A stretch of 64,000 bases of DNA from a virus (taxonomy: Duplodnaviria > Heunggongvirae > Uroviricota > Caudoviricetes): the IMG/VR virus record IMGVR_UViG_2721755711_000002; one strand, written 5' to 3'. The translations under genes were made by a program, and so were the position numbers. Within the stretch, counting starts at the first letter, position 1, and every line of letters begins with the position of its first letter. The notes below the pieces were generated by a model. The model worked only from the letters and a program-made list of their open reading frames with translations, was not told where the DNA came from and searched no databases. Below, one piece after another: positions 1-61,537 of this stretch.

Positions 1-1020
1 TTACTTACTGACCACAAGAGGTAGATCCAGTGTTGGCGTGATTTTTGTTTTGCGATCATAAATCAACACCTGATTTTCTGTTTTGTGCCCACTGAAAATT
101 TGTTTGTCGCGGCTGCTGCCTTCGTAATCTGAAATCCCTTTGGCTTTTATGTCATGGAAGTTGCACCCAAACGGAACGCCGGCTTTTTGCTCGGCTGCAC
201 GTTTAGCCTGATTCCACCAGTTGTTCAGCGTTTTAGCTATGACCTTCCCGCCTTTGGTTGTGTTGATCACATACTCGCATGTGCCGGAAGATACATTTCG
301 GGCTAATTGGATCACTGTGCGTAATCGTGGAGACCATTCCTTGATTTGTTTAGTGCCGGTCTTGTTTTGCTCAATGTAAATCCCTTTATCCATAATATCC
401 TGCCATTTCAGCTCGAGTACATCACCGAGCCTTGCCGCACAAAGATAGGATATCTCCATTGCAATACGTAACTGTGGAATTGCTTCCGCATATATTGCAG
501 CATACTGTTCATCGGTGATGTAAACAGTACGGGCTTTAAGTGTGAATTTTCTGACTCCTTTGCATGGATTATTTTTCACATACCCACGCTCATATCCCCA
601 TCCGTATACACGGCTCAGACTTGCCAGTTCATGGTTTGCCTGGGTCTTGCTCTCAAGTCCTCGCTTATCCATGAAAATTCTTACCTGTTCAATTTTTACA
701 TTATCAGCAAGCACTTTTCCGAATACTGCCAACAATGCCCTTTGATGTTGCCGATAATCTTTTTGGGTTCGGGGGGCCAGTTCTGTAAATGCAGGGGAGT
801 CCATAAACATGTGCCATAATTTAGCTACTGTCATTATGTTGTGGAGTTTTGCTTTTTCCAGCTCATAATTTTGCCAGACTTTAGCTACGCTGGTTTCCCG
901 CACTCTTCCGAGCCCTATAGTTCTTGTGCTTCCTTCGGGTTTCCATACGTAACTGTAACCATTCGATCTAACACGCGGTGGTAGTGCATTATCTTTTTTG
1001 TTTTTTCTTGGTCTTCCCAT
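1..1020 (-). CDS. int: Tyrosine-type site-specific integrase, complete (stop codon at window positions 1-3)
   Basis: 339-aa ORF with phage-integrase-like sequence; Xis-like ORF overlaps its start; position at prophage left edge. Confidence 0.85.
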   Translation of the reverse strand: MGRPRKNKKDNALPPRVRSNGYSYVWKPEGSTRTIGLGRVRETSVAKVWQNYELEKAKLHNIMTVAKLWHMFMDSPAFTELAPRTQKDYRQHQRALLAVFGKVLADNVKIEQVRIFMDKRGLESKTQANHELASLSRVYGWGYERGYVKNNPCKGVRKFTLKARTVYITDEQYAAIYAEAIPQLRIAMEISYLCAARLGDVLELKWQDIMDKGIYIEQNKTGTKQIKEWSPRLRTVIQLARNVSSGTCEYVINTTKGGKVIAKTLNNWWNQAKRAAEQKAGVPFGCNFHDIKAKGISDYEGSSRDKQIFSGHKTENQVLIYDRKTKITPTLDLPLVVSK

Positions 1021-1240
1021 TGTTCAGCGCCTCAAAATCGGGTTCAGCGGAAACCAGTTCAGGTGCTTTTGGCATCGTAGTCAGTCCGTGTGGAATATCC
1101 CTGCGAAGAACTATTGGTTCGTTTTTAGGACCGATTACAAATGGGATACCGTGCAGCCTTAACTGGTGTTGCTGTTTTGTGTATCGCTCGTATTTCGTGA
1201 TCTCTTGAATCTCTGCTGGCGATAGAGTTAATTCGTACAT
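989..1240 (-). CDS. xis: Excisionase-like small basic protein
   Basis: 83-aa ORF overlapping the integrase start, same strand; classic int-xis arrangement. Confidence 0.55.
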   Translation of the reverse strand: MYELTLSPAEIQEITKYERYTKQQHQLRLHGIPFVIGPKNEPIVLRRDIPHGLTTMPKAPELVSAEPDFEALNNGKTKKKQKR

Positions 1241-1306: not shown

Positions 1307-3814
1307 TTAAAAATCAACCGGATTCGGGATCAGTTTTTGCCAGATTGCTGAAACGTATTTTGCCTGGTGACGGGCGTCATCCAGTGCATTGTGGCGCACG
1401 CCTTCGAATGGAATAACGGTTTTGGCATCAAAGTCGATTGTTTTTCCCAGCTCAACGATTGTGCGTACATCGCGATCGTTGTGGTAGCGCCACGGGCAGG
1501 GGATCTCCAGACGTTCGTATGAGGTGCGCAAAATTGCGTTATCGAAAGTTGCACCATTACCCCATACCTGAACGAATTTTTCATCTGAGTATTCGTTGAT
1601 GAACTCCCGAAACCGCGAAAGGGCATCCTTCAGTTTTACCTGGTCTGTTAAAATGGCAGCTCTGGCTTCACTGGACTGCTTCAGCCACCATTTGATGGTT
1701 CCACCGTCAGGAGCAGCCCCTGTATTCATTGCGTCAGTCAGACTGATAACGATATAAAATACTGGCCCGATTTCCCCTGTTTGTGGGTCGAAGAAAACCG
1801 CACCAATAACCACGATGGGCGCATTGGTGTTGGTTCCCATTGTTTCAAGGTCGATCATCAGGTGGTACCACACTCTGCTGGTGGATGTGATAACGTGATG
1901 ACCGTTCACCACAATTAAGGGATCTGCCGTCTCACCAGTTTCATTATCGCTGGTGTGATGCTGATCGTTACCAGCATTCTCATTGTTCGGATGTTCAGCG
2001 CCTTCCATTTCCTCCGGATCATCTTCCTGAACTTCAGCCTGATTTTTTTCATCGAATGTTTCCTGGTATGTTGCGTTGCCCATCACCGCGCCACAGTCAG
2101 GACAGTTGCCGCCGCCGGTCTGACTGCAGGTGGTGCAGACTTTTTCCGGTTCTTGTTGCTCTTTTGGTTCAGGCTGTTTCGTTTCTGGCTCGTTTTGTAA
2201 CGCATTTGGGCTGTTTTGTTCCGCTTTCTGGTCGTTTTGTAACGCATTTGGGCTGTTTTGTTCCGCTTTCTGGTCGTTTTGTTCCGATTCGGGCTGGTTC
2301 TGGTTCACAGAATCGCGGGTTTCAATCCCCTTAACCCATTTCGGATCATTCGGGTCGCTAATTCCGTCAACGAACTCACCGCGATGGACTGCCAGTATTT
2401 TGTCGGCATCAGGCTGGTTGATATTGGCTGCCTGCATAATTTTGTTTACTTCGTCAGCGGTAACTTTTACCTGTTTAACTGGATCTACCTGTTCCTGAGT
2501 ATCCAGCGATTGCGTGTCCTGGTGATGTTCAGTTGTATCCGGCTCCATTGCTTCGGCCGTTGCCTGTTCATCTGCCATTGCGTCAGACGGTTGTGATTTT
2601 TCCTCATTATTTTTTTCTTCTTCTGTTTCGCGTTCAGCAGCCAGTTCGCGGTTAACTTCTTCCAGGATATCTTTTTCCGGTGTATGTCGTGCAGCAGTGA
2701 GAGTTTCCTTGCTGGGGTTCTCGTGATCAGTCTCCGTTAAGTGGGCGTTGATATACCCCTGAAGGCGTCCCGGGTAGTGATAAAACTCAGGGTGAGCGCT
2801 CCGGATAAGTGCAAAAATAGCGGCGCGGGAATAATCCAGAATACCCGGGGTTGCGCGAAGTGCTGCGGACCATTCTTTGAACGGACTTTCTCTTTTCAGG
2901 ACGATTTCTTTTGCGCGACGATAAACGCTACCCGGAATTTCATAAATATTAAAATCCATCGGAAGTGTGGCTGCTGCAGTCTCCACATCCAGCGTATCGA
3001 AGGTGTGTACTAAATTCGGATTGCGATCGGTTTTGTTCCCGCCACCGGCATTTGCACCGGAAGCCGTACGGGTGATACGCGAAACACGATTTCCTTTCAT
3101 CCACTCTTTTGTCAGCAGACCGCGATCGGTGTAGTCGGCGTCCAGGTATGCTTCGATAAAAGAAGTTATCAGTCCCAGGTCCGAATTTACGGGGGCGGGG
3201 AAAACTTTGTCAGTGTCTCGCACCAGTTTGTGGAGATCGCGAATCTCCAGCGGTTCGAGTTGCGCTGCTTTATTTGAGATAGCCAGCGCGGTAACGGCGG
3301 GAAGTTTTTCATCCTGTGCGTTATGTAATGCGCGCAGTTCGTCCCGCGAAACGTGTGTGATCGGTTTTTCGCTGCCGTGCTGTGCCAGCCATCGAACAGG
3401 CAGAATCTGACCTGAAACCGGCAGGAGCATGTTCTCCTCAATCTCAGTCATGTCTTCGCCGTTGACGTTGGTATTGTCAGTGTTGGCTGGTTTATCCTGA
3501 ACAGAGGGCGAGGGCGCGATAAGTACCATTGTGATACCATCTTCCCCGCCTTTTTCGTATCGGTTGCAGAATTCGGTATCAAACACGCCTTCCGGAGGAA
3601 GGTCATTCACAACGGGTAAATGGACGCGAACAGGTTTTTTAAAGTCGTCTTCATCATAATCGTTGTCATCCATTGCGGTAATGCAGCGGGAGATGGCAAC
3701 AGATAATTTTTTTGCTGTAGTCCAGTAAAAACCACCTTTAATTCCAAGGCGTTTTCTGACTTTGTCATTTTTTGCTTCACAATATAATGCAAATTCTTCT
3801 TTATCAGTGCTCAT
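1307..3814 (-). CDS. Large exonuclease with C-terminal DnaQ-like (DEDDh) 3'-5' exonuclease domain and acidic repeat-containing N-terminal region
   Basis: 835-aa ORF; C-terminal motifs MIDLETMG, WGNGATFDNAIL, HNALDDARH match Exo I/II/III of DEDDh nucleases; sits in the lambda exo position. Confidence 0.7.
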   Translation of the reverse strand: MSTDKEEFALYCEAKNDKVRKRLGIKGGFYWTTAKKLSVAISRCITAMDDNDYDEDDFKKPVRVHLPVVNDLPPEGVFDTEFCNRYEKGGEDGITMVLIAPSPSVQDKPANTDNTNVNGEDMTEIEENMLLPVSGQILPVRWLAQHGSEKPITHVSRDELRALHNAQDEKLPAVTALAISNKAAQLEPLEIRDLHKLVRDTDKVFPAPVNSDLGLITSFIEAYLDADYTDRGLLTKEWMKGNRVSRITRTASGANAGGGNKTDRNPNLVHTFDTLDVETAAATLPMDFNIYEIPGSVYRRAKEIVLKRESPFKEWSAALRATPGILDYSRAAIFALIRSAHPEFYHYPGRLQGYINAHLTETDHENPSKETLTAARHTPEKDILEEVNRELAAERETEEEKNNEEKSQPSDAMADEQATAEAMEPDTTEHHQDTQSLDTQEQVDPVKQVKVTADEVNKIMQAANINQPDADKILAVHRGEFVDGISDPNDPKWVKGIETRDSVNQNQPESEQNDQKAEQNSPNALQNDQKAEQNSPNALQNEPETKQPEPKEQQEPEKVCTTCSQTGGGNCPDCGAVMGNATYQETFDEKNQAEVQEDDPEEMEGAEHPNNENAGNDQHHTSDNETGETADPLIVVNGHHVITSTSRVWYHLMIDLETMGTNTNAPIVVIGAVFFDPQTGEIGPVFYIVISLTDAMNTGAAPDGGTIKWWLKQSSEARAAILTDQVKLKDALSRFREFINEYSDEKFVQVWGNGATFDNAILRTSYERLEIPCPWRYHNDRDVRTIVELGKTIDFDAKTVIPFEGVRHNALDDARHQAKYVSAIWQKLIPNPVDF
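2191..2274 (-). repeat. Perfect in-frame 42-bp tandem duplication (2 copies) inside the exonuclease gene
   Basis: cgttttgtaacgcatttgggctgttttgttccgctttctggt occurs twice back to back; encodes duplicated 14-aa unit QNDQKAEQNSPNAL. Confidence 0.85.
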
Positions 3815-3891
3815 TGATAAACCTCATTACAGATTTAAGGGTGAACAAATCCCTGTCATTGCTGACATATAAAAATGAAACCGAATATCAA

Positions 3892-4095
3892 TTACGGCGC
3901 TGTTTTAAGTCCTGCCGGGATTTCGTTATTATCCTGGTGAATAACTTTATCGACCGGATAACAGTTACCGGGAATTTTCTGTTCATCTGCGGCAGCCATG
4001 CATTCTTTCATTGAGCTGTATACGCCAGTAACCATGTCAACTGGTTCACCGGAAACAAGAAAAACCGTCAGAACAAGTGCAAATGTGGTATTCAT
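3892..4095 (-). CDS. Small secreted protein of unknown function (signal-peptide-like N-terminus)
   Basis: 67-aa ORF from MNTTFALVLTVFLVSG; start overlaps stop of upstream ORF (ATGA coupling). Confidence 0.4.
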   Translation of the reverse strand: MNTTFALVLTVFLVSGEPVDMVTGVYSSMKECMAAADEQKIPGNCYPVDKVIHQDNNEIPAGLKTAP

Positions 4096-4280
4096 TGCCA
4101 GCATCCTTTTTGCGTCGGGCGTAAACGGGCCAGCATTGAAGCAATGCATATCTCATTTGATGAATCTGGCTCATGCTTTATCTGATTAATGGCATCCTCA
4201 ATAAAGTTTTTATCGCCAGTGATAACGCCAATTTCAAAACGAGTCTCAGGCGTAGTGGAATTGAGTAATAACGTTTCCAT
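4095..4280 (-). CDS. Small hypothetical protein
   Basis: 62-aa ORF from internal ATG with GAGG ribosome-binding site; translationally coupled to next gene. Confidence 0.35.
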
Positions 4281-4832
4281 TATCGCGTCCTCAACAATGA
4301 ATTTTGTGATGCGGTGCCTGGTGCCTCCAGGTGACGTTAACCAGTTAACAATTAACGCCGGAATACAGGGACCCGCCTGCAAGTACCTACCCATAAGTAT
4401 TGATACGGAGAACAAATGGTCTTTTAACTGTTCCGCGTGCGCTTAGCCGCATTCACCACATCACAAAATTCACTTTAAAAAGGGCGGACATCAGCCAGCA
4501 ATTAAACTGATGCCGCCAAAGGTCAATACTCAACATGGAGTGTTGTAGCGGGGTTGTCACTTAAGCGTATGGTCAACCTGCCAACCCGGTGCCACAATGG
4601 GGTAAGGATAACCCCGCCATACTTACCGCCGCGCCATTTCGCGGAGTGCCACAACCGGAAGCGCACGGTCGAAGAAATCTAACGACAAGACTTCTAAGGA
4701 AAAGAAACCTTCGCCGTGCGATTTCGTGTTGTGTGCCTGCTTTTAACCACATCAGGCGAGGTGGTTCCTGTTGTTCCCCAACAACAAGAAATTTGTATAA
4801 TCCGGATACCCCAACAACACAGAGAGTTAAGA

Positions 4833-5351
4833 ATGCTATCTGGAATAACTTCATCAATAACGGCAATTAAAGTCTCGATTGATTTATTACAGGTAATACT
4901 TGATGCAAAAAGCCAATCTGAACGTGAAAAGGCTGTCTACGAAATGCGTCGCCAACTGGCAGACTTACAAATACAGAACGCAGAGCTAGCGAAAACGCTC
5001 GCGCTTCAGTACGAGGAAATACTCTTGCTTAAGCAAAAATGTCATGAAATTGACGAGCGTAATCGAAAACTTGAATGCTATACGATACACAAAACTGGTT
5101 TTGGGCATTTTGTCTATGCTTTCAGGAACAGCCTCGACGAAGAAGACACATGTTTTCACTATGCCTGTCCCAATTGCTATCAGCATGGTGTAATAGCAAT
5201 ACTTCAACCTGTTGAAATTGGTGAGCATGATAAGTTCCATATTTCTAAATGCCTGAAATGTGATTCGCGCTTTAAATTTGAACGCAATGATGACTATATA
5301 CCGCCCCCATCTGAAGAAGAGATAGGTAGAGCATTGAGCAGCAATCCGTAG
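4833..5351 (+). CDS. Hypothetical coiled-coil protein with C-terminal CxxC...CxxC zinc-ribbon-like motif (moron candidate)
   Basis: 172-aa ORF on opposite strand to neighbours; AT-rich by eye; upstream TGTATAAT extended -10 at ~4793-4801. Confidence 0.5.
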   Translation: MLSGITSSITAIKVSIDLLQVILDAKSQSEREKAVYEMRRQLADLQIQNAELAKTLALQYEEILLLKQKCHEIDERNRKLECYTIHKTGFGHFVYAFRNSLDEEDTCFHYACPNCYQHGVIAILQPVEIGEHDKFHISKCLKCDSRFKFERNDDYIPPPSEEEIGRALSSNP

Positions 5352-5513
5352 GTTATTGCTGTTGTGGATATCCAGATTGTTAAAGAGCATGCCGGAAGGT
5401 TATCCGTGTCCGGCGCACGACCACACGTAGCAGCGTGTTGGTCTCCATTTTTAATTCACCCCTTAATGGAGGATAAAATAATCGTGGTGCTGGTCGGCTC
5501 GGTCCCGCAGGTG

Positions 5514-6149
5514 TTACCCTTTAAACCAGTCAATCCAGAGTGGATAGTGTTCAGCATAAATATAGCTATACACATCCAGGTTGTATTTGCGGTCTGTCCT
5601 TAGCAGGTCGCAAATACAGGCCGCAGCTTCCAGGGCAGCAGCTTTGTTGCTGAATAACCATGTAGCAACATTCCGGCGATTATCTGTATCCCACTCTTTT
5701 GTGAGGGCTGACACCACGAAGGAGCCGTTGGTGTTGCCATCAAATACTTCCGTTTCCAGATTTTTAAGTAATGCCTGGTGAATTTTTGCCAGGTATTCAG
5801 TCGGAATTTCGCCACGAATTCGGATAAGTTTGTCATAAACAAACATGTTCCCCGCATATGGCGATTTTTCTTTCTTTTGTTCACTGGCAGGCTGGTCAAT
5901 TTCGTCTTCGGTTGGTTTCGTATTGATGTTTTGCACTGTCGTTTCTGCAATTTTCTTTGCCACACTCTCTGAGTCGTGTTTATTTTCAGGCGCACAGGAA
6001 TACAGTCCGACAAACGCATCTCGCACATTTCGAGCCATATTATCAGTGTCTTTTTTCGTTACCGATTCCAATGCAAGTTCGTTCAGACGTTGACGTAGTG
6101 TGTGTACTGCAATCTCCTGGATTGATAGCGGTAAATCTTTAAATTCCAT
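5514..6149 (-). CDS. Hypothetical early-left-operon protein
   Basis: 211-aa ORF from second ATG (GAGG site); no family recognised. Confidence 0.5.
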   Translation of the reverse strand: MEFKDLPLSIQEIAVHTLRQRLNELALESVTKKDTDNMARNVRDAFVGLYSCAPENKHDSESVAKKIAETTVQNINTKPTEDEIDQPASEQKKEKSPYAGNMFVYDKLIRIRGEIPTEYLAKIHQALLKNLETEVFDGNTNGSFVVSALTKEWDTDNRRNVATWLFSNKAAALEAAACICDLLRTDRKYNLDVYSYIYAEHYPLWIDWFKG

Positions 6150-6160
6150 CGTTAACCTCA

Positions 6161-6397
6161 TCAGTCAGTATTTCTGGCTAACCAGCGACGCGCGCCAGCT
6201 TCGGTTTTAAACGTTTTGCTTTTGGTATACGTCATCGCGGTGAACGTACCGTCCTGGTTTGGAAACACGCCGTATACCAGAGATTCGTTGTTGCCAAGAT
6301 CGATAGTATCCATGCTGACCTCATTTCCCCTTAACGCCGGGGTAGCGGAACAAAAACCTGCTGCATAGTTAAAGTTGAACCCTGCCGTCATGTTCAT
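6161..6397 (-). CDS. Small hypothetical protein, first gene of leftward early operon
   Basis: 78-aa ORF immediately downstream of operator-like palindromes; stop abuts next gene. Confidence 0.45.
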   Translation of the reverse strand: MNMTAGFNFNYAAGFCSATPALRGNEVSMDTIDLGNNESLVYGVFPNQDGTFTAMTYTKSKTFKTEAGARRWLARNTD

Positions 6398-6495
6398 ACG
6401 CCTCGGGCTGGCTACTTAACCCCTGACCACAGCCTGGTAACTCGAAGTATTGCCCTGCGTTCTGTGGGGCGGAGTGGGTTGGCATGAAAGGAAGG

Positions 6496-6534
6496 ATACC
6501 CATGGGTATCCAAAAAGTAAATACCCATGGGTAA
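6496..6534. promoter_or_regulatory. Two copies of palindrome ATACCCATGGGTAT (second 13/14), OL-like operator candidate
   Basis: Perfect 14-bp palindrome at 6496-6509 and near-copy at 6521-6534, between repressor 3' end and leftward early genes. Confidence 0.4.
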
Positions 6535-6577
6535 TTTTTTTTGAGGTGTCTTAACTGGTGATTGGTTGTTTGGTTAG

Positions 6578-6997
6578 TTATGATGCGTTTTGTGCTTTCT
6601 TTTTACGGATTTCTTCGTAGATCATATTGTAATACTGTTTTTTCTCTTCAAGAGTTTTTAATAAGTTATCCGCTTCACTTTCTGGCAGTTCGTCTAAGAG
6701 ATCTAAAAAAATACGTTGTCGTGGCGTTAGAACCCTTGTTTCATAATTGGAGGCTGTGTTCGTTGATGATGAAACGATACCATCCATCCATCCTCGGGGT
6801 AACCCAAAGGACTCTTCGATAATCTCCACCATATCATCAGCGATCCGTTTTTTTCCCTTTTTCCCCTCTGGGTACAACATTCTTGATACATAAGAAGGCT
6901 CGCGACCGATTTTTCTGGCTACGTTAACCGCTTTACCATCGCATTTCTCATCACGAATTTTGATGAGTTGCTGTCGTCTAAATTCATATTTGTCCAT
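6578..6997 (-). CDS. Prophage repressor-like DNA-binding protein (Rac RacR-like position; no S24 peptidase domain recognised)
   Basis: 139-aa ORF divergent from Cro-like gene; HTH-like segment VNVARKIGREPSYVSRML. Confidence 0.55.
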   Translation of the reverse strand: MDKYEFRRQQLIKIRDEKCDGKAVNVARKIGREPSYVSRMLYPEGKKGKKRIADDMVEIIEESFGLPRGWMDGIVSSSTNTASNYETRVLTPRQRIFLDLLDELPESEADNLLKTLEEKKQYYNMIYEEIRKKKAQNAS

Positions 6998-7097: not shown

Positions 7098-7379
7098 ATG
7101 GAAGAATTAAGAATATTTCTCAATTCTCTTTCGTCAGATGAACAGCGTATGTTTGCATGCGAGTGTGGTACCAGCATCGGTTATCTAAGAAAGGCATTGA
7201 GTAAAGGTCAAGTGTTAGGGGCATCGTTATGTGTCCTTATTGAGCGAGCCAGTAATGGTGAAGTTACACGTCAGCAACTAAGGCCTTTTGATTGGATGAA
7301 TATTTGGCCCGAGCTGGAAGATACCAAAACGTTAACACAACCACTTTCTAGGAGCTTGATTCATGAAAATCAAGCATGA
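7098..7379 (+). CDS. Cro/YdaS-like small HTH regulator
   Basis: 93-aa ORF with AAGGAG site, divergent from repressor; followed by YdaT-like gene. Confidence 0.55.
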   Translation: MEELRIFLNSLSSDEQRMFACECGTSIGYLRKALSKGQVLGASLCVLIERASNGEVTRQQLRPFDWMNIWPELEDTKTLTQPLSRSLIHENQA

Positions 7380-7788
7380 ACACATCCGCATGGCGATGAA
7401 TGCCTGGGCGCATCCAGACGGTGAAAAAGTTCCGGCAGCTGAAATAACCCAGGCTTATTTTGAGTTGGGGCTGACGTTTCCTGAACTGTACGACGACAGC
7501 CATCCGGAAGCCCTGGGCCGTAACACCCAGAAAATTTTCCGCTGGGTGAAGAAAGACACTCCTGATGCGGTTAAAAAAATTCAGGCGTTGTTACCAGCGA
7601 TCGAAAAAGCAATGCCGCCTCCGCTGGTGGCCCGAATGCGCAGCCACAGTTCCGCTTATTTTCGGGAGTTGGTAGAGACGAAGGAACGGCTGGTGAAAGA
7701 TATTGATGATTTCGTTGCATCAGCGATCGTTCTGTTCGATCAGATGAATCGTGGTGGCCCGGCAGGAAACACTCTGGCTGTGCATTAA
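7363..7788 (+). CDS. ydaT: YdaT-like protein (Rac prophage toxin family)
   Basis: 141-aa ORF starting MKIKHEHI as recalled for E. coli YdaT; position after Cro/YdaS-like gene. Confidence 0.5.
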   Translation: MKIKHEHIRMAMNAWAHPDGEKVPAAEITQAYFELGLTFPELYDDSHPEALGRNTQKIFRWVKKDTPDAVKKIQALLPAIEKAMPPPLVARMRSHSSAYFRELVETKERLVKDIDDFVASAIVLFDQMNRGGPAGNTLAVH

Positions 7789-7801
7789 TTGGGTAATAAA
7801 T

Positions 7802-8311
7802 ATGAGTAATGACAAAAAATTGACACTGAGCGTTTACGAAAACAGTCCGCACATCTGGCGTGGCGGTTTATCTGATATGGAGCTGGCAGAGTGGTTGATA
7901 CATAAAGCTAATGCGCTGCTCTGGCGTTTGTCAGCCAGAGAACAGCGCAAGGAAACCAGAATAAAGCTGGCTGATGCAGAAGCGTGTGCCGGGCTTATTG
8001 AGGATTATACAAATCTTGGTATTTCTTCAGCAGAGAGTGATCCCATTCAGCCTCTGAGCAGGGAGTCAATCCAGCACGCTGGTTGTATGGCACATCTTGT
8101 AACTGCTCGTCAACATGAGGTGGGTATTGGATCACTTCCGGTGGGATATTCGCTGATTCCAGAGCTGGTTGAAGCAAGAAAATCAGTTCAGAAAAAGAGA
8201 GATGACGCACTTCAATTATTGAGAGAGCACTATGGCGCGATACCAGAATGCGAACAGCGTCGATACCCTGAAGGTTATGAATGGATGCAGTCTCTTTTTG
8301 AAGTTCGCTAA
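7802..8311 (+). CDS. Hypothetical early protein
   Basis: 169-aa ORF from MSNDKK; a similar-length antisense ORF exists, so strand is uncertain. Confidence 0.35.
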   Translation: MSNDKKLTLSVYENSPHIWRGGLSDMELAEWLIHKANALLWRLSAREQRKETRIKLADAEACAGLIEDYTNLGISSAESDPIQPLSRESIQHAGCMAHLVTARQHEVGIGSLPVGYSLIPELVEARKSVQKKRDDALQLLREHYGAIPECEQRRYPEGYEWMQSLFEVR

Positions 8312-8528
8312 TCAATATGTCGAGACGAAGGTATGTTTCGGCGCGCAGCCAGGCTCTGTAATCCGGGAGCATTTCGGGGCTGTTACACCAGCGGTTTGTT
8401 GCTGCAACATTTAATACATGAGCCTGATAAAGGCTTTTCAAAAAATACATGTCGAACCTCCTCTGGTTCTGTCGATTGGGCACCACAGATTATATCCGGA
8501 GGAAGGTTCGGCACCAGATGAGGTAGCC

Positions 8529-9638
8529 ATGCGTGATTACGCAAAAGTTTCTCCGCGATTCTGGCTGGGAGAAACGGGGAGAGAACTTAGAAAGGCGGGT
8601 GCAGAAGCGCAAGTTGTTGCTTTTTACCTGATGACATCCCCTCACGCAAATATGCTGGGTTTGTATTACCTGCCAGTTTTATACCTTGCTCATGAAACCG
8701 GGCTTGGTCTGGAAGGGGCTTCAAAGGGGCTTAAAAGGGCTGTTGAAGCTGGTTTTTGTAGCTATGACCATGATGCCGAGATGGTCTGGGTCCATGAAAT
8801 GGCAGCCTGGCAGGTTGGGGAAACGTTGAAGCCTGGCGATAACCGTTGTGCAGGTGTCAGGAATGAGTATGCATCATTACCTGAAAACGCTTTTCTGTCA
8901 GCGTTTTATGACAGATATAAAACGGATTTCCATCTGGATGTGAGGCGGAATAATAGCCGAAATTCGGTAAGGGGCTTCGAAGGGGCTTTTAAGGGGCTTC
9001 GAAGCCAAGAACAGGAGCAGGAGAAAGAACAGGAACAGGACAAAAACACTATGGCTCATGGTGAAAAAAACACCACGAACCAGGCAGGGGATGTTCAGAC
9101 CGTAAATTCTGGTCAGCCAGCAGGCACGACACCGGAAGCCGATTCGGCGTATGCGCTGAAAGCCGATTCGGGCGCTGTGCAGCAGGTGATGACCGCAGGG
9201 TCGGAGCAATCACACCAACTGCAGCAGCCTGAAGCCGATTCCGCCATTCAGCGGGAAGCCGATCGGGTAGTCCCGGAAAACACCGGGCGGCCTGTGGGAC
9301 GAGTGGATTATCCGGATGTGTTCGAACAGGTCTGGCGGGAATACCCGTTGCGTGCCGGGGCAAACCCGAAGAAATCCGCATTCAGTGCCTGGAAGGCCAG
9401 ATTGCGCGAGGGGGTGCCACCAGAGACCATGCTGGATGGTGTGAGGCGTTACGCGAGATACCTGGCGGCGACCGGGAAAGCGGGAACGGAATTTGTTCAG
9501 CGAGCGACGACGTTTTTTGGACCGGACCGGAATTTTGAAAACCCCTGGTTGCTCCCGGTAAGCGGCACGAACAACCAGCGTTGTGTGAATCACATTTCTG
9601 AACCGGACACCGAAATTCCACCAGGGTTCAGGGGATAA
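8529..9638 (+). CDS. Phage replication protein (replisome organizer, O-like) with conserved phage C-terminal domain
   Basis: 369-aa ORF from MRDYAKVSPRFW with GAGG site; both termini resemble prophage replication initiators. Confidence 0.55.
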   Translation: MRDYAKVSPRFWLGETGRELRKAGAEAQVVAFYLMTSPHANMLGLYYLPVLYLAHETGLGLEGASKGLKRAVEAGFCSYDHDAEMVWVHEMAAWQVGETLKPGDNRCAGVRNEYASLPENAFLSAFYDRYKTDFHLDVRRNNSRNSVRGFEGAFKGLRSQEQEQEKEQEQDKNTMAHGEKNTTNQAGDVQTVNSGQPAGTTPEADSAYALKADSGAVQQVMTAGSEQSHQLQQPEADSAIQREADRVVPENTGRPVGRVDYPDVFEQVWREYPLRAGANPKKSAFSAWKARLREGVPPETMLDGVRRYARYLAATGKAGTEFVQRATTFFGPDRNFENPWLLPVSGTNNQRCVNHISEPDTEIPPGFRG

Positions 9639-18379: not shown

Positions 18380-19921
18380 ATGCCAACAGTTCCAATTTCT
18401 ATGAGAAAACTTAAAGAAATTCTTAGGCTTAAATACGGTGTTGGACTCAGCCATCGACAAATTGGTCGTAGTCTTGCAATCTCCCCTTCCGTTGTATCCA
18501 GATATGCTAATCGGGCGGCTCAACTTGGCATAAAGCAGTGGCCCTTACCTACAGGATGGGATGATACAAAACTAAAACATGCGTTCCTTCAGACCCAGGT
18601 TAAGATGAAGAAGCACTCTCTGCCTGACTGGGCTACAGTACACCGGGAACTGCGTAATAAATGCGTGACGCTGCAGCTACTCTGGGAAGAATACTGTGAG
18701 CGTAATCCAGGCGGTTTTTACAGCTATAACCATTACTGCCGGATGTACCGTGAATGGCTCAAAACCACTTCACCATCAATGCGTCAGGTACATAAAGCTG
18801 GCGAAAAACTTTTCGTTGATTACTGTGGACCTACCGTTGGCGTTACCGACCCTGAGACCGGAGAAATAAGAACTGCTCAGGTCATCGTAGCTGTTCTCGG
18901 GGCATCAAGTTACACATGGGCAGAGGCCACCTGGTCTCAGCAGCTTGAAGACTGGGTGATGAGTCATGTTCGCTGCTTCCAGTGGTTGGGTGGCGTTCCT
19001 GAACTTGTTGTTCCGGACAATCTGAAAAGCGCCACATCCAGGGCATGTAAGTATGATCCTGACGTTAACCCTACCTACCAGCAGATGCTTGAGCATTATA
19101 ATGTCGCAGTTTTGCCTGCGCGGCCACGTAAACCGAAAGATAAAGCCAAAGCTGAAGTTGGCGTTCAGGTTGTTGAACGCTGGATCATGGCCCGAATCAG
19201 GCATGAGATCTTCTACAGCCTTGCATCGCTTAATCAGCGCATTCGGGAGTTGCTGGAAAGACTGAATAACAAAATAATGCAGAAGTTGGGTTATTCACGT
19301 GCAGAACTCTTCATCCAGCTTGATAAACCCGCACTGAAGCCTCTTCCTGAAGCCAGTTACAGTTACACCCTGGTGAAGAAAGTCAGAGTTCATGCCGATT
19401 ACCACGTGGAAATCGACAAACATTACTACTCGGTTCCATGTTCGCTGTTAGGCCAGCAACTGGAAGCATGGATCTCCGGAGAACTGGTAAGACTCTTCAA
19501 TCAGGGGCAGGAGGTTGCTGTGCACCCGCGCAAGCGTACTTATGGCTACAGTACCCGCAACGAGCACATGCCTGAAGCTCATCGACAGCATGCCACCTGG
19601 ACGCCAGAGCGTCTTCTGGAATGGGCGGGGCACATAGGCAGTGAAACTCATAGTTATGTGCTTCATATACTGAACTCTCGTCCACATCCGGAACAAAGCT
19701 ATCGCTTCTGCCTTGGACTCCTGAACCTTCATAAAAAATACAGTAAAGCCAGACTTAATGCAGCATGTGCAAGAGCTCTGAAAACAAAGGTATGGCGTCT
19801 GTCAGGTATTAAATCGATCCTGGAAAAAGGTCTGGATAAACAACCTGTTCAGGATCCAAAACCAGATCTGTTATCCACGATGGAACACGAAAACGTACGC
19901 GGCAGTGAGTATTACCACTGA
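18380..19921 (+). CDS. istA: IS21-family transposase IstA
   Basis: 513-aa ORF with N-terminal HTH and DDE integrase-like core. Confidence 0.85.
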   Translation: MPTVPISMRKLKEILRLKYGVGLSHRQIGRSLAISPSVVSRYANRAAQLGIKQWPLPTGWDDTKLKHAFLQTQVKMKKHSLPDWATVHRELRNKCVTLQLLWEEYCERNPGGFYSYNHYCRMYREWLKTTSPSMRQVHKAGEKLFVDYCGPTVGVTDPETGEIRTAQVIVAVLGASSYTWAEATWSQQLEDWVMSHVRCFQWLGGVPELVVPDNLKSATSRACKYDPDVNPTYQQMLEHYNVAVLPARPRKPKDKAKAEVGVQVVERWIMARIRHEIFYSLASLNQRIRELLERLNNKIMQKLGYSRAELFIQLDKPALKPLPEASYSYTLVKKVRVHADYHVEIDKHYYSVPCSLLGQQLEAWISGELVRLFNQGQEVAVHPRKRTYGYSTRNEHMPEAHRQHATWTPERLLEWAGHIGSETHSYVLHILNSRPHPEQSYRFCLGLLNLHKKYSKARLNAACARALKTKVWRLSGIKSILEKGLDKQPVQDPKPDLLSTMEHENVRGSEYYH

Positions 19922-19932
19922 TACGGGATCCA

Positions 19933-20682
19933 ATGATGAATCATCTTTACGAACAACTGACCGCACTTAAACTCACCGGCTTCCGTGATGCGCTTAAAAA
20001 GCAACTTGCTCAGCCGGGCACATACCAGGAGCTGGGCTTCGAAGAACGCCTGTCATTACTGACAGCAGAAGAACTAACCTGCCGTGAAAACAGGAAGGCA
20101 GAGCGTCTGATCAAACATGCACGGTTCAGACTTAATGCTGAGTTATCAAAGCTGGATTATCGTAACAATAGAGGGCTGGACAGGGCCCTCATCCGTTCAC
20201 TCAGTCAGGGAAACTGGTTAACCCTGAAACAAAATATTTTACTGACCGGGGCCACCGGCAGCGGTAAAACGTTCCTGGCATGTGCACTTGGTCATAATGC
20301 CTGCCGACAGGGATACAAGGTCTACTATTATCGCCTTAAAGCGCTGATGGAACAGTGCTATCAGGGGCATGCTGATGGAAGATACAGCAAACTTTTGACC
20401 AGGCTGAATAATAGCGATCTGCTGCTTCTGGATGACTGGGGGCTGGAACCTCTCTCATCAGAACAGCGTAGCGACCTGCTGGAAATAGTGGATCTGATGT
20501 ACCAACGAGGCTCAATCATCGTAGTGAGCCAGTTGCCGGTGGAAAACTGGTACAAAATGATCGGAGACTCCACACATGCGGATGCCATCCTAGATCGACT
20601 GGTTCATGGCAGTATCAAGATCGAACTTAAAGGAGAATCAATGCGGAAAATACAATCTCCGTTGACCGAAGGAGATCAGTGA
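19933..20682 (+). CDS. istB: IS21-family helper ATPase IstB
   Basis: 249-aa ORF with Walker A LTGATGSGKT and Walker B LLLLDDWG. Confidence 0.9.
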   Translation: MMNHLYEQLTALKLTGFRDALKKQLAQPGTYQELGFEERLSLLTAEELTCRENRKAERLIKHARFRLNAELSKLDYRNNRGLDRALIRSLSQGNWLTLKQNILLTGATGSGKTFLACALGHNACRQGYKVYYYRLKALMEQCYQGHADGRYSKLLTRLNNSDLLLLDDWGLEPLSSEQRSDLLEIVDLMYQRGSIIVVSQLPVENWYKMIGDSTHADAILDRLVHGSIKIELKGESMRKIQSPLTEGDQ

Positions 20683-20836
20683 AGGTAATTTAAAAACGGT
20701 TCTGTGAAAGTGACACGAACCGATCTCCATCGATGTTACTCACCGATCTCCTTCACGGTAATACGCACATAATAAAAAAATCCAGAATAAAGCGCAAAAT
20801 AAGGTGATACAGCACTTTATTTGACCACTTACGTTT

Positions 20837-21403
20837 TTATTCACTGATGGGCAGACTTCTGATGGTGTTCAGGTCATCCAGCCCCGCCAGTGTTTCCTTC
20901 ATCTCCCGCTGACGGCGATAAATCTCGTCATTGCGATCGACCTGCGCCTGAACCATTGCAGTAAGCAGTTCATCCAGTTGTTGCATTGACAACTTTACCT
21001 GCTGATTTTCCGCATCACCCCATACCATAGTTTTCCGTGCCGTGACTGATTTTGCTGACATCACCACCGGATAAAGGCGGGCCATTGAATCCGGTCCCCC
21101 GTTCCAGCTATGACCGTTCCATTCAAAAATGAATGGCTGCGCCTCCTGCTCTGTACGCCATGCTTCAATTTCCCGGCGTTTGGCTGCTTTTGCTGCTTCC
21201 AGCATCTCTGACGTGACGGTGAACGGCGTTATTTCTCCCCACTTGCCGCTTTGCAGTTCCTGCCAGACTCGCTGCCCTGTCTCTGCTGTATCCGTGGCAG
21301 TTGCCGTATACGGAACCGGTTCATCCATGCCATCAAACAACACCCCACAGTCAATCGCGCCATTTTCAAGATAACGCGCATTTTCGATGCGTTTTATTTC
21401 CAT
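20837..21403 (-). CDS. Tail fibre assembly protein (Tfa-like chaperone)
   Basis: ~189-aa ORF from MEIKRIENARYLENG, directly after side tail fibre gene. Confidence 0.65.
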   Translation of the reverse strand: MEIKRIENARYLENGAIDCGVLFDGMDEPVPYTATATDTAETGQRVWQELQSGKWGEITPFTVTSEMLEAAKAAKRREIEAWRTEQEAQPFIFEWNGHSWNGGPDSMARLYPVVMSAKSVTARKTMVWGDAENQQVKLSMQQLDELLTAMVQAQVDRNDEIYRRQREMKETLAGLDDLNTIRSLPISE

Positions 21404-21410
21404 AAAACAC

Positions 21411-22835
21411 CTACGCAATACGTATGAACAAACCAATCATGACACTGGCTGACCCGGCAGACCCGAGCCCGTCACCTGACAGTGCCCGATATGACCCCGG
21501 CATACCACCACCAGAACCCCGCACATATACGGAAACGCTGCCGTTATATCCAACCCCGCTACCGGTCGTGCCGTGACACATAAATTCAACCGCGCTCAGG
21601 CGTGACCCCGGATAGCTGTAACCGCGTTTTATCCGGCGGTCGGTGTCTGCGTCTCCCTTACCGTTATAAGCCGCCAGTACAAGACTGCCTGCACCGTACC
21701 AGCCGTCCGTGGTACCGGGAGCAATACCGGACAGAAGAGAGATAATGTCCTGTGAGGTCATCTTCAGATTTTCCCAGCCAGTCAGATAACCATTACCTGT
21801 TGTCCAGTAGCGGTTGTAATAAACATCGCCATTAATACCGTAGAAAATAATGGCCTTTGCTGTATATCGCGGCTCCGGTGGATTATTGCGTGCCTCAACC
21901 CACCGGATGCGGACCATCCCGTTAAACAACACACCTCCGGATATGATTTTACTGTCACCCTCAACAAAATATTCACCCGGCGTCGCATTCCTTACCCAGG
22001 ACAGAAAATCATCCTCTGTGTTAAAACGGATACGCTCTGCGGGCAAAAAAATATGCCCAAAACCAAATGCGCCAGGTGTCGCCAGACGACCTTCAGTCCG
22101 GTCACGAATGTCGCTCTGTGGCGTCATTGTGGCTGCGCTTTTCAGTCCAAGATTATCACGGGATTCCTGCTGAGCCTCTTCACCTTCATCAGCCAGCTCT
22201 GATAAACGATTCGCCGTTTTCAGTGTCGCAGATAACGCAGTATCAATATCTGCTCTGGCCTGCTCTGCACCGGATGCGGCCTTTTTCGCGGCTTCAGCAT
22301 CCTGCCTGACCTCCGCGGCGGTATCCTCAACCCGTGAGGCCAGAGTTTCGACCTGTTGTTTACCCTCCGCAACCGCGTCGGCGTTCTGCTGTACGTCTTT
22401 CGCCAGCGCCTGACAGTCGGCCTTAATCTGCTGTGCATCAGTGGCGTGTTGTCCTGCCTGTTGTTCGCTGCCAGCGGCGGCTTCTGCGCTCTGCTGCGCC
22501 TGTGCCACCATTTCCTCAAAGCGTTTTACCACGTCGGGTTTGAGGTCGCCTTCATCGGGGGCGGTCAGAAAGTCGTTCAGCGTGCCGGGCTTTGAATCGT
22601 CATAAACAGCAATATTCCCCACGCAACATTTCGGGCCGTTCTTTTGTTTTATATGAACGGCATATTTTCCTGTCTGCGCTTCAAAGGCATACTGTCCCGC
22701 CGCATCGGTTTCAATAACCGCAAATGATTCAATAACCACTTCACTGGTATTAACCAGTGCATCTAAATAAATTTTGCATTCCGCCATCGGAACGCCAGTG
22801 CCATTAACAAGTGCACCTGAAATTAATACAGACAT
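21411..22835 (-). CDS. Side tail fibre protein (lambda Stf-like N-terminal domain)
   Basis: 474-aa ORF; N-terminus aligns with lambda Stf (ISG.L.DGTG...YEDSQPGTLNDFL). Confidence 0.8.
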   Translation of the reverse strand: MSVLISGALVNGTGVPMAECKIYLDALVNTSEVVIESFAVIETDAAGQYAFEAQTGKYAVHIKQKNGPKCCVGNIAVYDDSKPGTLNDFLTAPDEGDLKPDVVKRFEEMVAQAQQSAEAAAGSEQQAGQHATDAQQIKADCQALAKDVQQNADAVAEGKQQVETLASRVEDTAAEVRQDAEAAKKAASGAEQARADIDTALSATLKTANRLSELADEGEEAQQESRDNLGLKSAATMTPQSDIRDRTEGRLATPGAFGFGHIFLPAERIRFNTEDDFLSWVRNATPGEYFVEGDSKIISGGVLFNGMVRIRWVEARNNPPEPRYTAKAIIFYGINGDVYYNRYWTTGNGYLTGWENLKMTSQDIISLLSGIAPGTTDGWYGAGSLVLAAYNGKGDADTDRRIKRGYSYPGSRLSAVEFMCHGTTGSGVGYNGSVSVYVRGSGGGMPGSYRALSGDGLGSAGSASVMIGLFIRIA

Positions 22836-35030: not shown

Positions 35031-35922
35031 TCAGGCTGCCAGATCATCGTTTCCGATGGAAGCATAATAAGCTTTTTCTGCTTCTGCCGGTGGGATATGG
35101 CCCAGCCTTTCCAGCAATCGTCGATTGTTATACCAGTCCACCCACGTGAGTGTGGACAGCTCCACTTCTGTCCGGTTTTTCCAGCGCTTACGGTGTATTA
35201 CCTCCGCTTTGTAAAGGCCATTGATGCTTCTCCGCCATCGCGTTGTCATACGAGTCACCAGTACTCCCTGTTGATGCCAGTAAGCCGGCTTCCTTAAGCC
35301 GCTGCGTGTAGGCCAGCGATACATACTGAGAACCTTTATCACTGTGGTGGATTGTGCCGGACGGCCGACGGGCCCACAACGCCTGCTCCAGTGCATCCAG
35401 CACGAATGCCGTTTCCATGGATGATGAGACCCGCCATCCCACGATGTATCCGGCGAACACATCAATGATGAACGCCACATAAACGAAGCCCTGCCATGTG
35501 TTTACCCAGGTAAAATCAGCCACCCACAACTGGTCAGGACGTTCTGCCACGAACTGACGGTTTACGCGGTCGCATGCGGCAACGGCTTTCCGGCTGACGG
35601 TAGTGCGGACCTTTTTACCCCGGAGAACACCGGCAAGTCCCATAACCGCCATGAGACGTGCCACAGTGCATCTGGCCACTCTGATACCTTCCCGTAACAA
35701 CTGACGCCAGACTTTACGCACACCGTATACCTGGTGATTTTCATCGTATACGCGCTGTATCTCTTTCTTCAGCCAGTCATCGCGCTGCGCACGGGCACTG
35801 CGTTTATCAGGATGATGTCGCTGTTGCTGACAGTGGTAATACGTTGACGGGGCAATATGCAGTTCGCTGCATACCGGTCCGACCCCGTACTGCTCACGCA
35901 GCTTATCCAGCAGTGGCATCAT
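35031..35922 (-). pseudogene. IS629 transposase orfB interrupted by a 1-nt insertion frameshift
   Basis: ORF pieces 35188-35922 and 35031-35480 are in different frames; extra base in GAGAAGC (plus-strand ~35227-35231) breaks the expected DNAMAESINGLYKAEV. Confidence 0.7.
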
Positions 35923-36245
35923 TTTTTCCAGAGGCGGTCGAACTCCGCCTTCGCAAAATAAGCGGAAGCCTGGCGAAGGATATCGTTACTGCGGCGCAGT
36001 TCACGATTTTCACGTTCCAGCTCTTTCAGACGCTGACGTTCAGCGGTGGTGAGCCCACCATCACCGCCCCCGGTATCCCGCTCATGCTGGCGAACCCAGA
36101 CACGCAGAGTCTCCGGCGTACAGCCAATTTTTGGGGCAATGGAACAAATTGCCGCCCACTGTGAATCATACTCATCCTGACTTTCCAGAACCATACGAAT
36201 CGCTCGCTGACGGACTTCGGGGGAAAAACGAGTATTTTTAGTCAT
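35919..36245 (-). CDS. IS629 transposase OrfA (HTH)
   Basis: 108-aa [24 protein letters not shown]... with leucine-zipper-like C-terminus. Confidence 0.85.
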
Positions 36246-61027: not shown

Positions 61028-61537
61028 ATGGCAACGCAGGCGGAGGTAGCCGAGCATCTTGGTATAACTGAACGCTGGTTGCGGGATCTTCAGAAGCACC
61101 CGGGAGCGCCAAAAAATCGAAAGCGTGGTGAATACGATATTGATGCCTGGCGATATTTTTATATTTCATACCTTAAACGCAAAGGAAGAAGCGATACTGA
61201 TGACGATGGAAATAGCGATTACGAAGAAAAATTACTTATCGCCAGATGGAAATTGACTGAAGAACAGGCAATAGCACAGCAATTAAAAAATCAGGTAACC
61301 GAAGGCAAGCTCATTGATTCTGGGTTCTGCGTTTTCGCTCTCAGCAAACTGGCGATGGCATTGTCCAGTACGCTTGATTCCATTCCTTTATCCATGCAGC
61401 GACAGTTCCCGGATTTAACCCCGCGTCATATCGATTATCTGAAAACCCTTATCGCAAAAGGCGCGAATCAGTGTGCGCGGACAGGGGATAAATTGCCGGA
61501 GTTACTCGATGAATATATCCGAACTACAGCTGAATAA
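61028..61537 (+). CDS. nu1: Terminase small subunit (lambda Nu1-like)
   Basis: 169-aa ORF; central region aligns with lambda Nu1 (FC.F.LS..A...S.LD..PLS.QR.FP.L..RH.D.LK). Confidence 0.8.
   Translation: MATQAEVAEHLGITERWLRDLQKHPGAPKNRKRGEYDIDAWRYFYISYLKRKGRSDTDDDGNSDYEEKLLIARWKLTEEQAIAQQLKNQVTEGKLIDSGFCVFALSKLAMALSSTLDSIPLSMQRQFPDLTPRHIDYLKTLIAKGANQCARTGDKLPELLDEYIRTTAE

Follow-up and report, generated by a model that had tools for sequence, protein, structure and literature searches.

Introduction

The Rac prophage of Escherichia coli K-12 encodes RecE (exonuclease VIII, 866 aa), in which a C-terminal PD-(D/E)XK domain acts 5'→3' on double-stranded DNA, and recT lies downstream. In the Qin prophage of the same strain, ydfE shares an operon with dicB and ydfD and has been described as a pseudogene next to an insertion sequence (IS) element. 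T4 DexA, for which structures 8KEL and 8KEN have been solved, is a stand-alone exonuclease of 227 aa with extra loops. Here, we describe a gene at positions 1307-3814 (minus strand) of IMG/VR record IMGVR_UViG_2721755711_000002, a 64,000-nucleotide stretch of Caudoviricetes DNA (hereafter, the window), which joins parts related to RecE and to DexA. The encoded protein is a RecE whose 5'-3' PD-(D/E)XK nuclease has been exchanged for a 3'-5' DEDDh nuclease.

Lambdoid phages that encode a nuclease and no annealing partner have been described as a group. In a 2025 survey of 314 lambdoid phages (Genome Res, PMC12315714), the "Tritos" type has a nuclease, no single-strand annealing protein (SAP), no SSB, and no anti-RecBCD function, and it is Chi-rich; Table 1 of that survey lists the type as nuclease-positive, SAP-negative, anti-RecBCD-negative, and Chi-rich. 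The survey finds DnaQ-type nucleases near int and proposes that phages of the Tritos kind rely on the host RecBCD-Chi pathway.

The window gene shares features with each of these systems. It occupies the same late place in the early-left operon of a lambdoid prophage as recE, and the N-terminal ~590 residues of RecE, including the acidic linker and a CxxC-x8-CxxC motif, are homologous to it; the PD-(D/E)XK domain and recT have no equivalent here. It shares its operon context with ydfE, yet here the gene is complete and its nuclease domain intact. Among solved structures, DexA is the nearest in sequence as well as in fold, and it has the same five catalytic residues. However, its identity to the window domain is only ~23-26%, and the window domain is tethered to a 650-residue RecE N-terminal (RecE-N) region.

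Domain Architecture

The gene is a minus-strand open reading frame (ORF) encoding 835 aa, the length originally predicted; the ORF list places it at 1307-3814, and a GAGG Shine-Dalgarno sequence precedes its ATG 6 nt upstream. ORF, Pfam, PHROG, and BLASTP evidence identify it as a RecE N-terminal region followed by a DexA-type DEDDh 3'-5' exonuclease. Two Pfam families, PF06630 (Exonuc_VIII) and PF16473 (Rv2179c-like), match the protein, as do PHROG 607 and PHROG 255, and an 835-aa E. coli "exonuclease" at NCBI is 98% identical to it.

PF06630 covers aa 57-189 with an E value of 4e-28. The NCBIfam RecE equivalog PRK09709, a model of 877 positions, covers aa 1-635 with its positions 1-603; as nothing in the window protein corresponds to the last third of the model, the 874-bit score does not reach the cut-off of 1269 bits. 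BLASTP against K-12 RecE aligns query residues 60-635 with RecE 52-592 at 54.9% identity, and nothing aligns beyond. The original prediction held the C-terminal exonuclease to be the only recognizable domain, which is countered by the PF06630 match at aa 57-189, by the PRK09709 match at aa 1-635, and by the 55% identity to RecE 52-592. According to the RecE model and BLASTP, the N-terminal 600 residues are the conserved N-terminal region of RecE and not anonymous sequence.

The alignment with RecE passes through the shared acidic linker, the CxxC-x8-CxxC motif, and a segment reading "...ETGE.ADP.IV", after which the two proteins diverge. RecE enters its nuclease domain, whereas the window protein enters "VNGHH...HLMIDLETMG". 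BLASTP and the alignment place the domain-swap junction at the last RecE-homologous residues, ADPLIV (aa 630-635; 1910-1927, minus strand), and the PD-(D/E)XK 5'→3' domain of RecE-type proteins (RecE ~564/606-866) has no counterpart in the window protein. The RecE alignment thus stops where another nuclease domain begins, and the gene is therefore a RecE with its nuclease domain exchanged.

AlphaFold2 was applied both to the whole protein and to aa 1-400. Three parts of the N-terminal region are predicted to be folded, with predicted local distance difference test (pLDDT) values of 75-93. They are an α/β module at aa 4-100 (3515-3805, minus strand) and two helical modules at aa 136-248 and 256-377 (2684-3409, minus strand), which belong to the RecE-N/YdfE region and fall inside the BLASTP alignment with RecE 52-592. 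YdfE_C (PF27432) is also a precomputed hit in relatives with 34-46% identity to the window protein. Residues 378-646 (1877-2683, minus strand) have pLDDT values below 50 and form an acidic, predicted-disordered linker that is homologous to RecE up to aa 635. The isoelectric point of aa 401-650 is 4.2, and Asp and Glu account for 21% of these residues, but low-entropy windows are confined to ~aa 504-559. The earlier description of ~600 residues of acidic low-complexity sequence therefore does not hold, given that aa 4-100 and 136-377 are predicted to be folded and that low complexity is limited to ~aa 504-559. Toward the end of the linker, the CxxC-x8-CxxC motif (aa 560-574; 2093-2137, minus strand), which is conserved and also present in RecE, is a putative zinc knuckle as judged by its cysteine pattern.

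Nuclease Domain

The C-terminal domain (aa 651-825; 1340-1864, minus strand) is a DEDDh exonuclease of the DnaQ superfamily, as originally predicted, and Pfam, the alignment with DexA, AlphaFold2, and Foldseek agree on this assignment. The domain search suggested with that prediction recovers PF16473 in addition to the PF06630 match described above. PF16473 scores 234 bits against a cut-off of 27 (E 1.2e-69), and the match extends over profile positions 2-177 of 177. PHROG 255, which contains T4 DexA, matches the window protein at 1.2e-83. In a sequence search of the Protein Data Bank (PDB), 8KEL and 8KEN are the sole solved matches, and use of the family profile lifts the 8kel match to 1.8e-19. 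The chains in these two entries are T4 exonuclease A (DexA), as established by tblastn, and belong to PHROG 255. Rv2179c itself was not recovered by the sequence search of the PDB, which returned only DexA.

The catalytic residues were located in a MAFFT alignment with 60 stand-alone family representatives and DexA, and conservation was scored over 62 aligned sequences. Residues D655, E657, D758, H808, and D813 of the window protein align with D7, E9, D119, H186, and D191, the catalytic residues given for DexA (PMC12153337). All five are present, and each is at least 95% conserved; a lack of these residues would have argued against the exonuclease assignment. The AlphaFold2 model has pLDDT values above 90 over aa 650-830 and shows the RNase H-like α/β fold of solved DEDDh exonucleases. 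When this model is compared with the PDB by Foldseek, DexA (8kel) is the top match (E 4e-9; template modeling score 0.68-0.75), followed by RNase T, Orn, REXO2, and ERI1. Every neighbor named in this comparison is a DEDDh enzyme.

Absence of an Annealing Partner

DEDDh enzymes degrade nucleic acids 3'→5', whereas λ Exo and RecE have the opposite polarity. In systems of the Exo/Bet or RecE/RecT type, the nuclease is accompanied by an annealase, and the neighborhood of the window gene was searched for one. Pfam and PHROGs reveal no RecT, Red-beta, Erf, Rad52, Sak, Gam, or SSB family among the early-left ORFs. A translated Pfam scan of 3815-6600 covered four of the six frames (all three on the minus strand and one on the plus strand) and returned only DUF1482, DicB, and DUF1391. 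The 20 early-right ORFs (7098 to 21436) contain no match to RecT, Bet, Erf, Rad52, Gam, or SSB, and Abc2 is missing from the Pfam matches in the early regions. A pseudogenized annealase hidden in 3815-6600 was also considered and is unlikely, none being found in the four of six frames scanned. The original prediction that no RecT/Bet/Erf-like partner lies nearby thus agrees with the Pfam and PHROG scans of both the early-left and early-right ORFs, and no RecT/Bet-family protein, which would have contradicted it, appears in these scans among the small adjacent genes.

Gene order in relatives gives the same picture. The excisionase gene (DUF4224 by Pfam, with PHROG support; 989-1240, minus strand) directly follows the exonuclease gene, and the 66-bp gap between them holds no recT. 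Eight relatives share this arrangement, with xis and int next after the exonuclease gene and no partner gene: E. coli strains RM11911 and PapRG-04-4; the phages mEp460, vB_EcoS-640R1, and Tritos; and three representatives whose identity to the window protein is 34-46%. RecE-type proteins that have the same linker are directly followed by RecT, as seen in K-12 and in strain 401651. The same RecE-N scaffold is found with two kinds of nuclease: a 5'-3' enzyme accompanied by RecT, and a 3'-5' enzyme that never is.

The label "recombination exonuclease" given to the gene originally is not justified by these data, because the polarity of a DEDDh enzyme is opposite to that of λ Exo and RecE and because no annealase is present. 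For the same reasons, the gene does not belong to a two-component recombinase ("SynExo") of the Exo/Bet or RecE/RecT type. That class requires a nuclease of the PD-(D/E)XK type, and the only nuclease domain in the protein is DEDDh. The gene had also been placed in the λ exo position. Its place is rather that of recE in Rac and ydfE in Qin, as the last early-left gene before xis and int. It closes a dicB-type early-left operon that reads repressor, DUF1391, dicF, dicB, ydfD, exonuclease, xis, int. This layout is of the Qin type and is also syntenic with Rac, which has recE-recT at the corresponding place.

The prophage in the window matches the published Tritos class. The exonucleases of Tritos, mEp460, and the enterohemorrhagic E. 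coli prophage CP-933P type have the same architecture as the window protein, theirs being 823 aa long. The gene order of Tritos-type phages is also the same (CI ... DicF, DicB, YdfD, exonuclease, xis, int), and there is no SAP. All these alleles differ from the window gene in showing ~82% DNA identity over the C-terminal half only and in having a single copy of a 14-aa unit that is duplicated in the window protein. A further difference is that IS21 and a Mu-like prophage break up the prophage in the window.

The distribution of Chi octamers (GCTGGTGG) fits the published pattern of lambdoid phages that have no anti-RecBCD gene. Seven Chi sites are present, all in the first 17 kb, which form the lambdoid early region, and the remaining 47 kb contain none. 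Six are on the plus strand (1877-1884, 7623-7630, 12939-12946, 14029-14036, 14086-14093, and 16942-16949) and one is on the minus strand (14671-14678). The number expected for the whole 64 kb, which holds only part of the prophage, is 2.2, and 7 was reached in 0 of 100 shuffles. The site at 1877-1884 is located at the domain-swap junction, inside the ~45-bp gap that separates the end of RecE homology (1910) from the DEDDh domain, which starts at 1864.

Proposed Function and Alternatives

The protein is probably a 3'-end-processing exonuclease that acts without a phage annealase. We infer the timing of its expression and its biological role as follows. After induction, the protein would act as a Mg2+-dependent 3'→5' exonuclease on DNA 3' ends, an activity expected from its homology to DexA and other DEDDh enzymes, with the RecE-N region supplying targeting or regulation. 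With no Exo/annealase pair, any phage recombination would be left to the host RecBCD-Chi pathway and RecA, and trimming of 3' tails could help RecBCD by giving the blunt ends that it needs. A more far-reaching version can be formulated, in which RecE-N would serve lambdoid phages as a delivery module that is nuclease-agnostic and can be coupled to enzymes of either polarity. In phages of the Tritos type, which are Chi-rich and have neither annealase nor Gam, the DexA version would trim 3' tails, allowing host RecBCD to load and to travel as far as the Chi sites of the phage. We hold this version to be doubtful and give it little credence. If true, the exonuclease would be a dedicated helper of host RecBCD-Chi recombination and not half of a phage recombinase. 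The natural domain swap could be used to learn the role of the N-terminal 590 residues of RecE and how annealase-less phages use RecBCD.

Several points weigh against the main explanation, 3'-end processing of DNA. DnaQ-type nucleases usually inhibit recombination (PMC12315714), and because recombinogenic 3' tails would as a rule be destroyed by a 3'→5' exonuclease, a pro-recombination role is speculative. Both the polarity and the preference for DNA over RNA rest on homology; Rv2179c, which gave the Pfam family its name, is an exoribonuclease, and similarities in fold extend to RNase T and oligoribonuclease. EcD, a DexA-family homologue from E. coli described under the name HREX (Nucleic Acids Res. 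2025, PMC12153337), degrades 5-hydroxymethylcytosine (5hmC)-containing T4 DNA and protects cells against T4. In addition, IS21 and the Mu-like prophage interrupt this copy of the lambdoid prophage, and the exonuclease gene may therefore not be expressed in a normal lytic program here.

The EcD results raise the main alternative, that of an anti-phage, superinfection-exclusion nuclease of the HREX type, whose DexA-like domain would degrade modified T-even-like DNA and thereby protect the lysogen. The N-terminus of EcD (MIDTET...) resembles MIDLET at aa 653 of the window protein, and its numbering (A78 = DexA D90) would fit the indel pattern of the domain family when counted from M653. The family comprises 12,153 representative clusters, most of them stand-alone proteins of ~180-200 aa, and the presence of matching DNA in 4742 of 5426 complete E. 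coli genomes would also suit a defense gene. We nevertheless consider this role unlikely. The exonuclease gene is the distal gene of a repressor-controlled operon and has no sigma-70-like promoter just upstream on its strand, PADLOC returns no match for the gene or its neighbors, and a defense model does not explain the 650-residue RecE-N extension. EcD, compared here by its description, appears to be short and stand-alone and has Ala at the position of DexA D90, a residue of the tetramer, whereas the window protein keeps Asp (D730), as do 91 of the 96 homologues (of 120) that have the MIDLETMG anchor. The DexA residues associated with 5hmC recognition, W152 and D169, lack clear equivalents, aligning with H778 and T792 in a region that MAFFT aligns poorly; W775, which is 94% conserved, lies 3 residues off. 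No "MIDTET" protein was found among 150 representatives of the domain family. An exact scan of contigs with a 20-mer from the reverse primer for EcD (HAK9828821.1) gave one chance hit, in an Acetatifactor metagenome-assembled genome, and was abandoned as a dead end.

Activity on RNA has also been weighed, in the form of a 3'-5' exoribonuclease that would act on host or phage transcripts or in DicF turnover. RefSeq labels many homologues "3'-5' exoribonuclease" in keeping with the Pfam family name, which refers to the Mycobacterium tuberculosis enzyme; RNase T, Orn, REXO2, and ERI1 are structural neighbors; and the gene is cotranscribed with a DicF-like small RNA locus. Because many DEDDh enzymes act on both nucleic acids, however, the family name is no evidence of substrate. 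The closest characterized relative by sequence and fold is a DNA exonuclease, T4 DexA, and the DEDDh domain replaces a DNA nuclease on the scaffold of a recombination protein, so that a role in RNA turnover appears improbable. Still less probable is a conventional recombination system in which the gene is the exonuclease half at the λ exo position and its partner annealase is too divergent to recognize. The gene does sit at the recE position of Rac-like prophages and shares the N-terminal 590 residues of RecE, and two neighbors of 215 aa (5514-6161) and 211 aa (4716-5351) have no assigned function. Yet the polarity of a DEDDh enzyme is wrong for making the 3' tails that annealases need, no SAP family appears in the four scanned frames of 3815-6600 or in the early-right ORFs, and the two neighbors are not kept beside the gene in relatives, two of which (L013 and L015) have other small genes there. 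Moreover, recT is directly downstream in RecE-type alleles and never in the DexA-type alleles compared, and the survey of 314 lambdoid phages reports no SAP in the Tritos type (PMC12315714).

Repeat Polymorphism in the Linker

The linker contains a perfect, in-frame 42-bp tandem duplication at 2191-2274 (minus strand), exactly where it was originally reported. Positions 2191-2232 are identical to 2233-2274, and identity at period 42 extends from 2190 to 2282, corresponding to two copies plus 9 bp; Tandem Repeats Finder reports a period of 42 with a score of 193. In the protein, the duplication gives two copies of the 14-aa unit NDQKAEQNSPNALQ at aa 513-540.

A comparison of repeat number among homologues, which had been proposed as a check, finds two copies in 1 of the 120 closest database proteins (87-98% identity), namely, the 835-aa NCBI E. 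coli protein with 98% identity. The unit occurs once, or as a diverged copy, in the other 119, and it is absent from K-12 RecE. One 42-bp copy is missing from the nearest complete genomes (98.5% DNA identity), which supports the view that the duplication is recent. In the single-copy allele, a 9-bp direct repeat, ACAAAACGA, brackets the unit at a spacing of 42 bp, as expected for replication slippage. The duplication is a recent product of replication slippage between these 9-bp direct repeats. A 60-nt junction query against complete E. coli genomes gave no single-piece match of at least 99% among the matches listed. Rows reported at "100% coverage" were considered as carriers of the duplication and rejected, because each combines two partial matches; one example is L008, which has a single copy.

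The surrounding region is composed of 7-aa (21-bp) units, including NDQKAEQ, NSPNALQ, and NEPETKQ. Measured from DPxDPKW to the Cys motif, linker lengths are 38, 45, 52 (94 sequences), 54 (one sequence), 59 (16 sequences), and 66 aa, five of these six classes being spaced in 7-aa steps. Alleles of the 59-aa class have QNSPNAL twice, and different 45-aa alleles have lost different units. In E. coli JNEC-KY176 (NZ_AP045172.1, 3376693-3377052), five tandem copies of QNSPNAL, brought to light by the junction query, represent an independent expansion of a different unit at the same linker site. These independent gains and losses in 21-bp steps among other alleles bear out the suggestion that the region is a slippage hotspot. 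As the linker around it is predicted to be disordered, the duplication is unlikely to affect function and is most likely neutral. It adds one more allele of a repeat-prone linker and changes little for the window.

Occurrence and Prophage Context

Of 5426 complete E. coli genomes, 4742 contain matching DNA; in 1069 of these, the match spans 80% or more of the gene. The combined PF06630 and PF16473 architecture is precomputed for every close hit, and RefSeq names these relatives "exonuclease", "3'-5' exoribonuclease", or "RecE family". With annotated members in thousands of E. coli genomes, the family is already known; both it and the nuclease-only, Chi-rich class (2025) have been catalogued, and the finding is real but ordinary. 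Literature searches returned nothing on phages for Rv2179c and nothing for "exodeoxyribonuclease VIII" with DicB. In E. coli RM11911 (L001, 7001-9466; 98.5% DNA identity), the gene is annotated as a RecE-family pseudogene fragment plus an "exonuclease" coding sequence. Given this two-piece annotation in its closest complete-genome relatives, the gene is disrupted there and intact in the window.

The remaining genes of the early-left operon are on the minus strand. The operon ends with a tyrosine integrase gene at 1-1020, an ORF whose homologue carries that annotation in RM11911. Directly upstream of the exonuclease gene is a YdfD-like gene (DUF1482, Pfam 1.5e-23; 3892-4149), preceded by the gene for the cell-division inhibitor DicB (Pfam 1e-25, NCBIfam 2.6e-35; 4092-4415). 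A DicF-like small RNA upstream of dicB (4482-4528) is assigned by Rfam RF00039 and a terminator-like hairpin. Its score of 37.9 bits (E 6e-6) is under the gathering score of 48, which is why a default Rfam scan missed it; DicF of Tritos is annotated at the same place. Beside this locus, 4261-4480 (minus strand) gives a subthreshold match to STnc100 (E 6e-5). The first early-left gene is a DUF1391 gene (YdfA/YdaF-like, Pfam 1.3e-28; 6161-6397), and the prophage repressor gene (DicA/CI-like; 6578-6997) is supported by PHROG 5736 (4.7e-70) and a weak NCBIfam match to DicA.

The 215-aa protein at 5514-6161 (minus strand) matches PHROG 2151. Only its first ~90 residues are common to several other PHROGs, a pattern suggestive of a shared N-terminal module to which different C-terminal domains are attached. 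The 211-aa ORF at 4716-5351 (PHROG 1244) lies within the early-left operon on the opposite, plus strand, stands where sieB sits in Rac, and contains paired cysteines (CPNC...CLKC); it is a possible exclusion or moron gene.

To the right, YdaS/YdaT-like genes, replication genes, DUF968, RusA, and Q are followed by genes for a MazF-like toxin and an AraC-family regulator, and then by IS21. The PemK/MazF-like toxin-domain protein (16213-16692, plus strand) and the AraC-family regulator (16858-17778, plus strand) are encoded just downstream of Q, where lysis genes are expected, and are probably cargo. IS21 occupies 18380-20682 (plus strand). Beside it, within the lambdoid prophage, is a Mu-like transposable prophage at ~20837-58000 (minus strand), which encodes tail fiber, baseplate, tape measure, sheath, protease, portal, and TerL proteins and a MuA-like transposase (55083-57125). 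A λ-type large terminase gene (61473-63425, plus strand) follows the Mu-like prophage. Within the Mu-like region, the Rfam cis-regulatory family ALIL pseudoknot matches 35848-35964 (minus strand) with 121 bits. This match may mark an IS3-family insertion, as the corresponding feature in E. coli PK8241 adjoins an IS3-family transposase.

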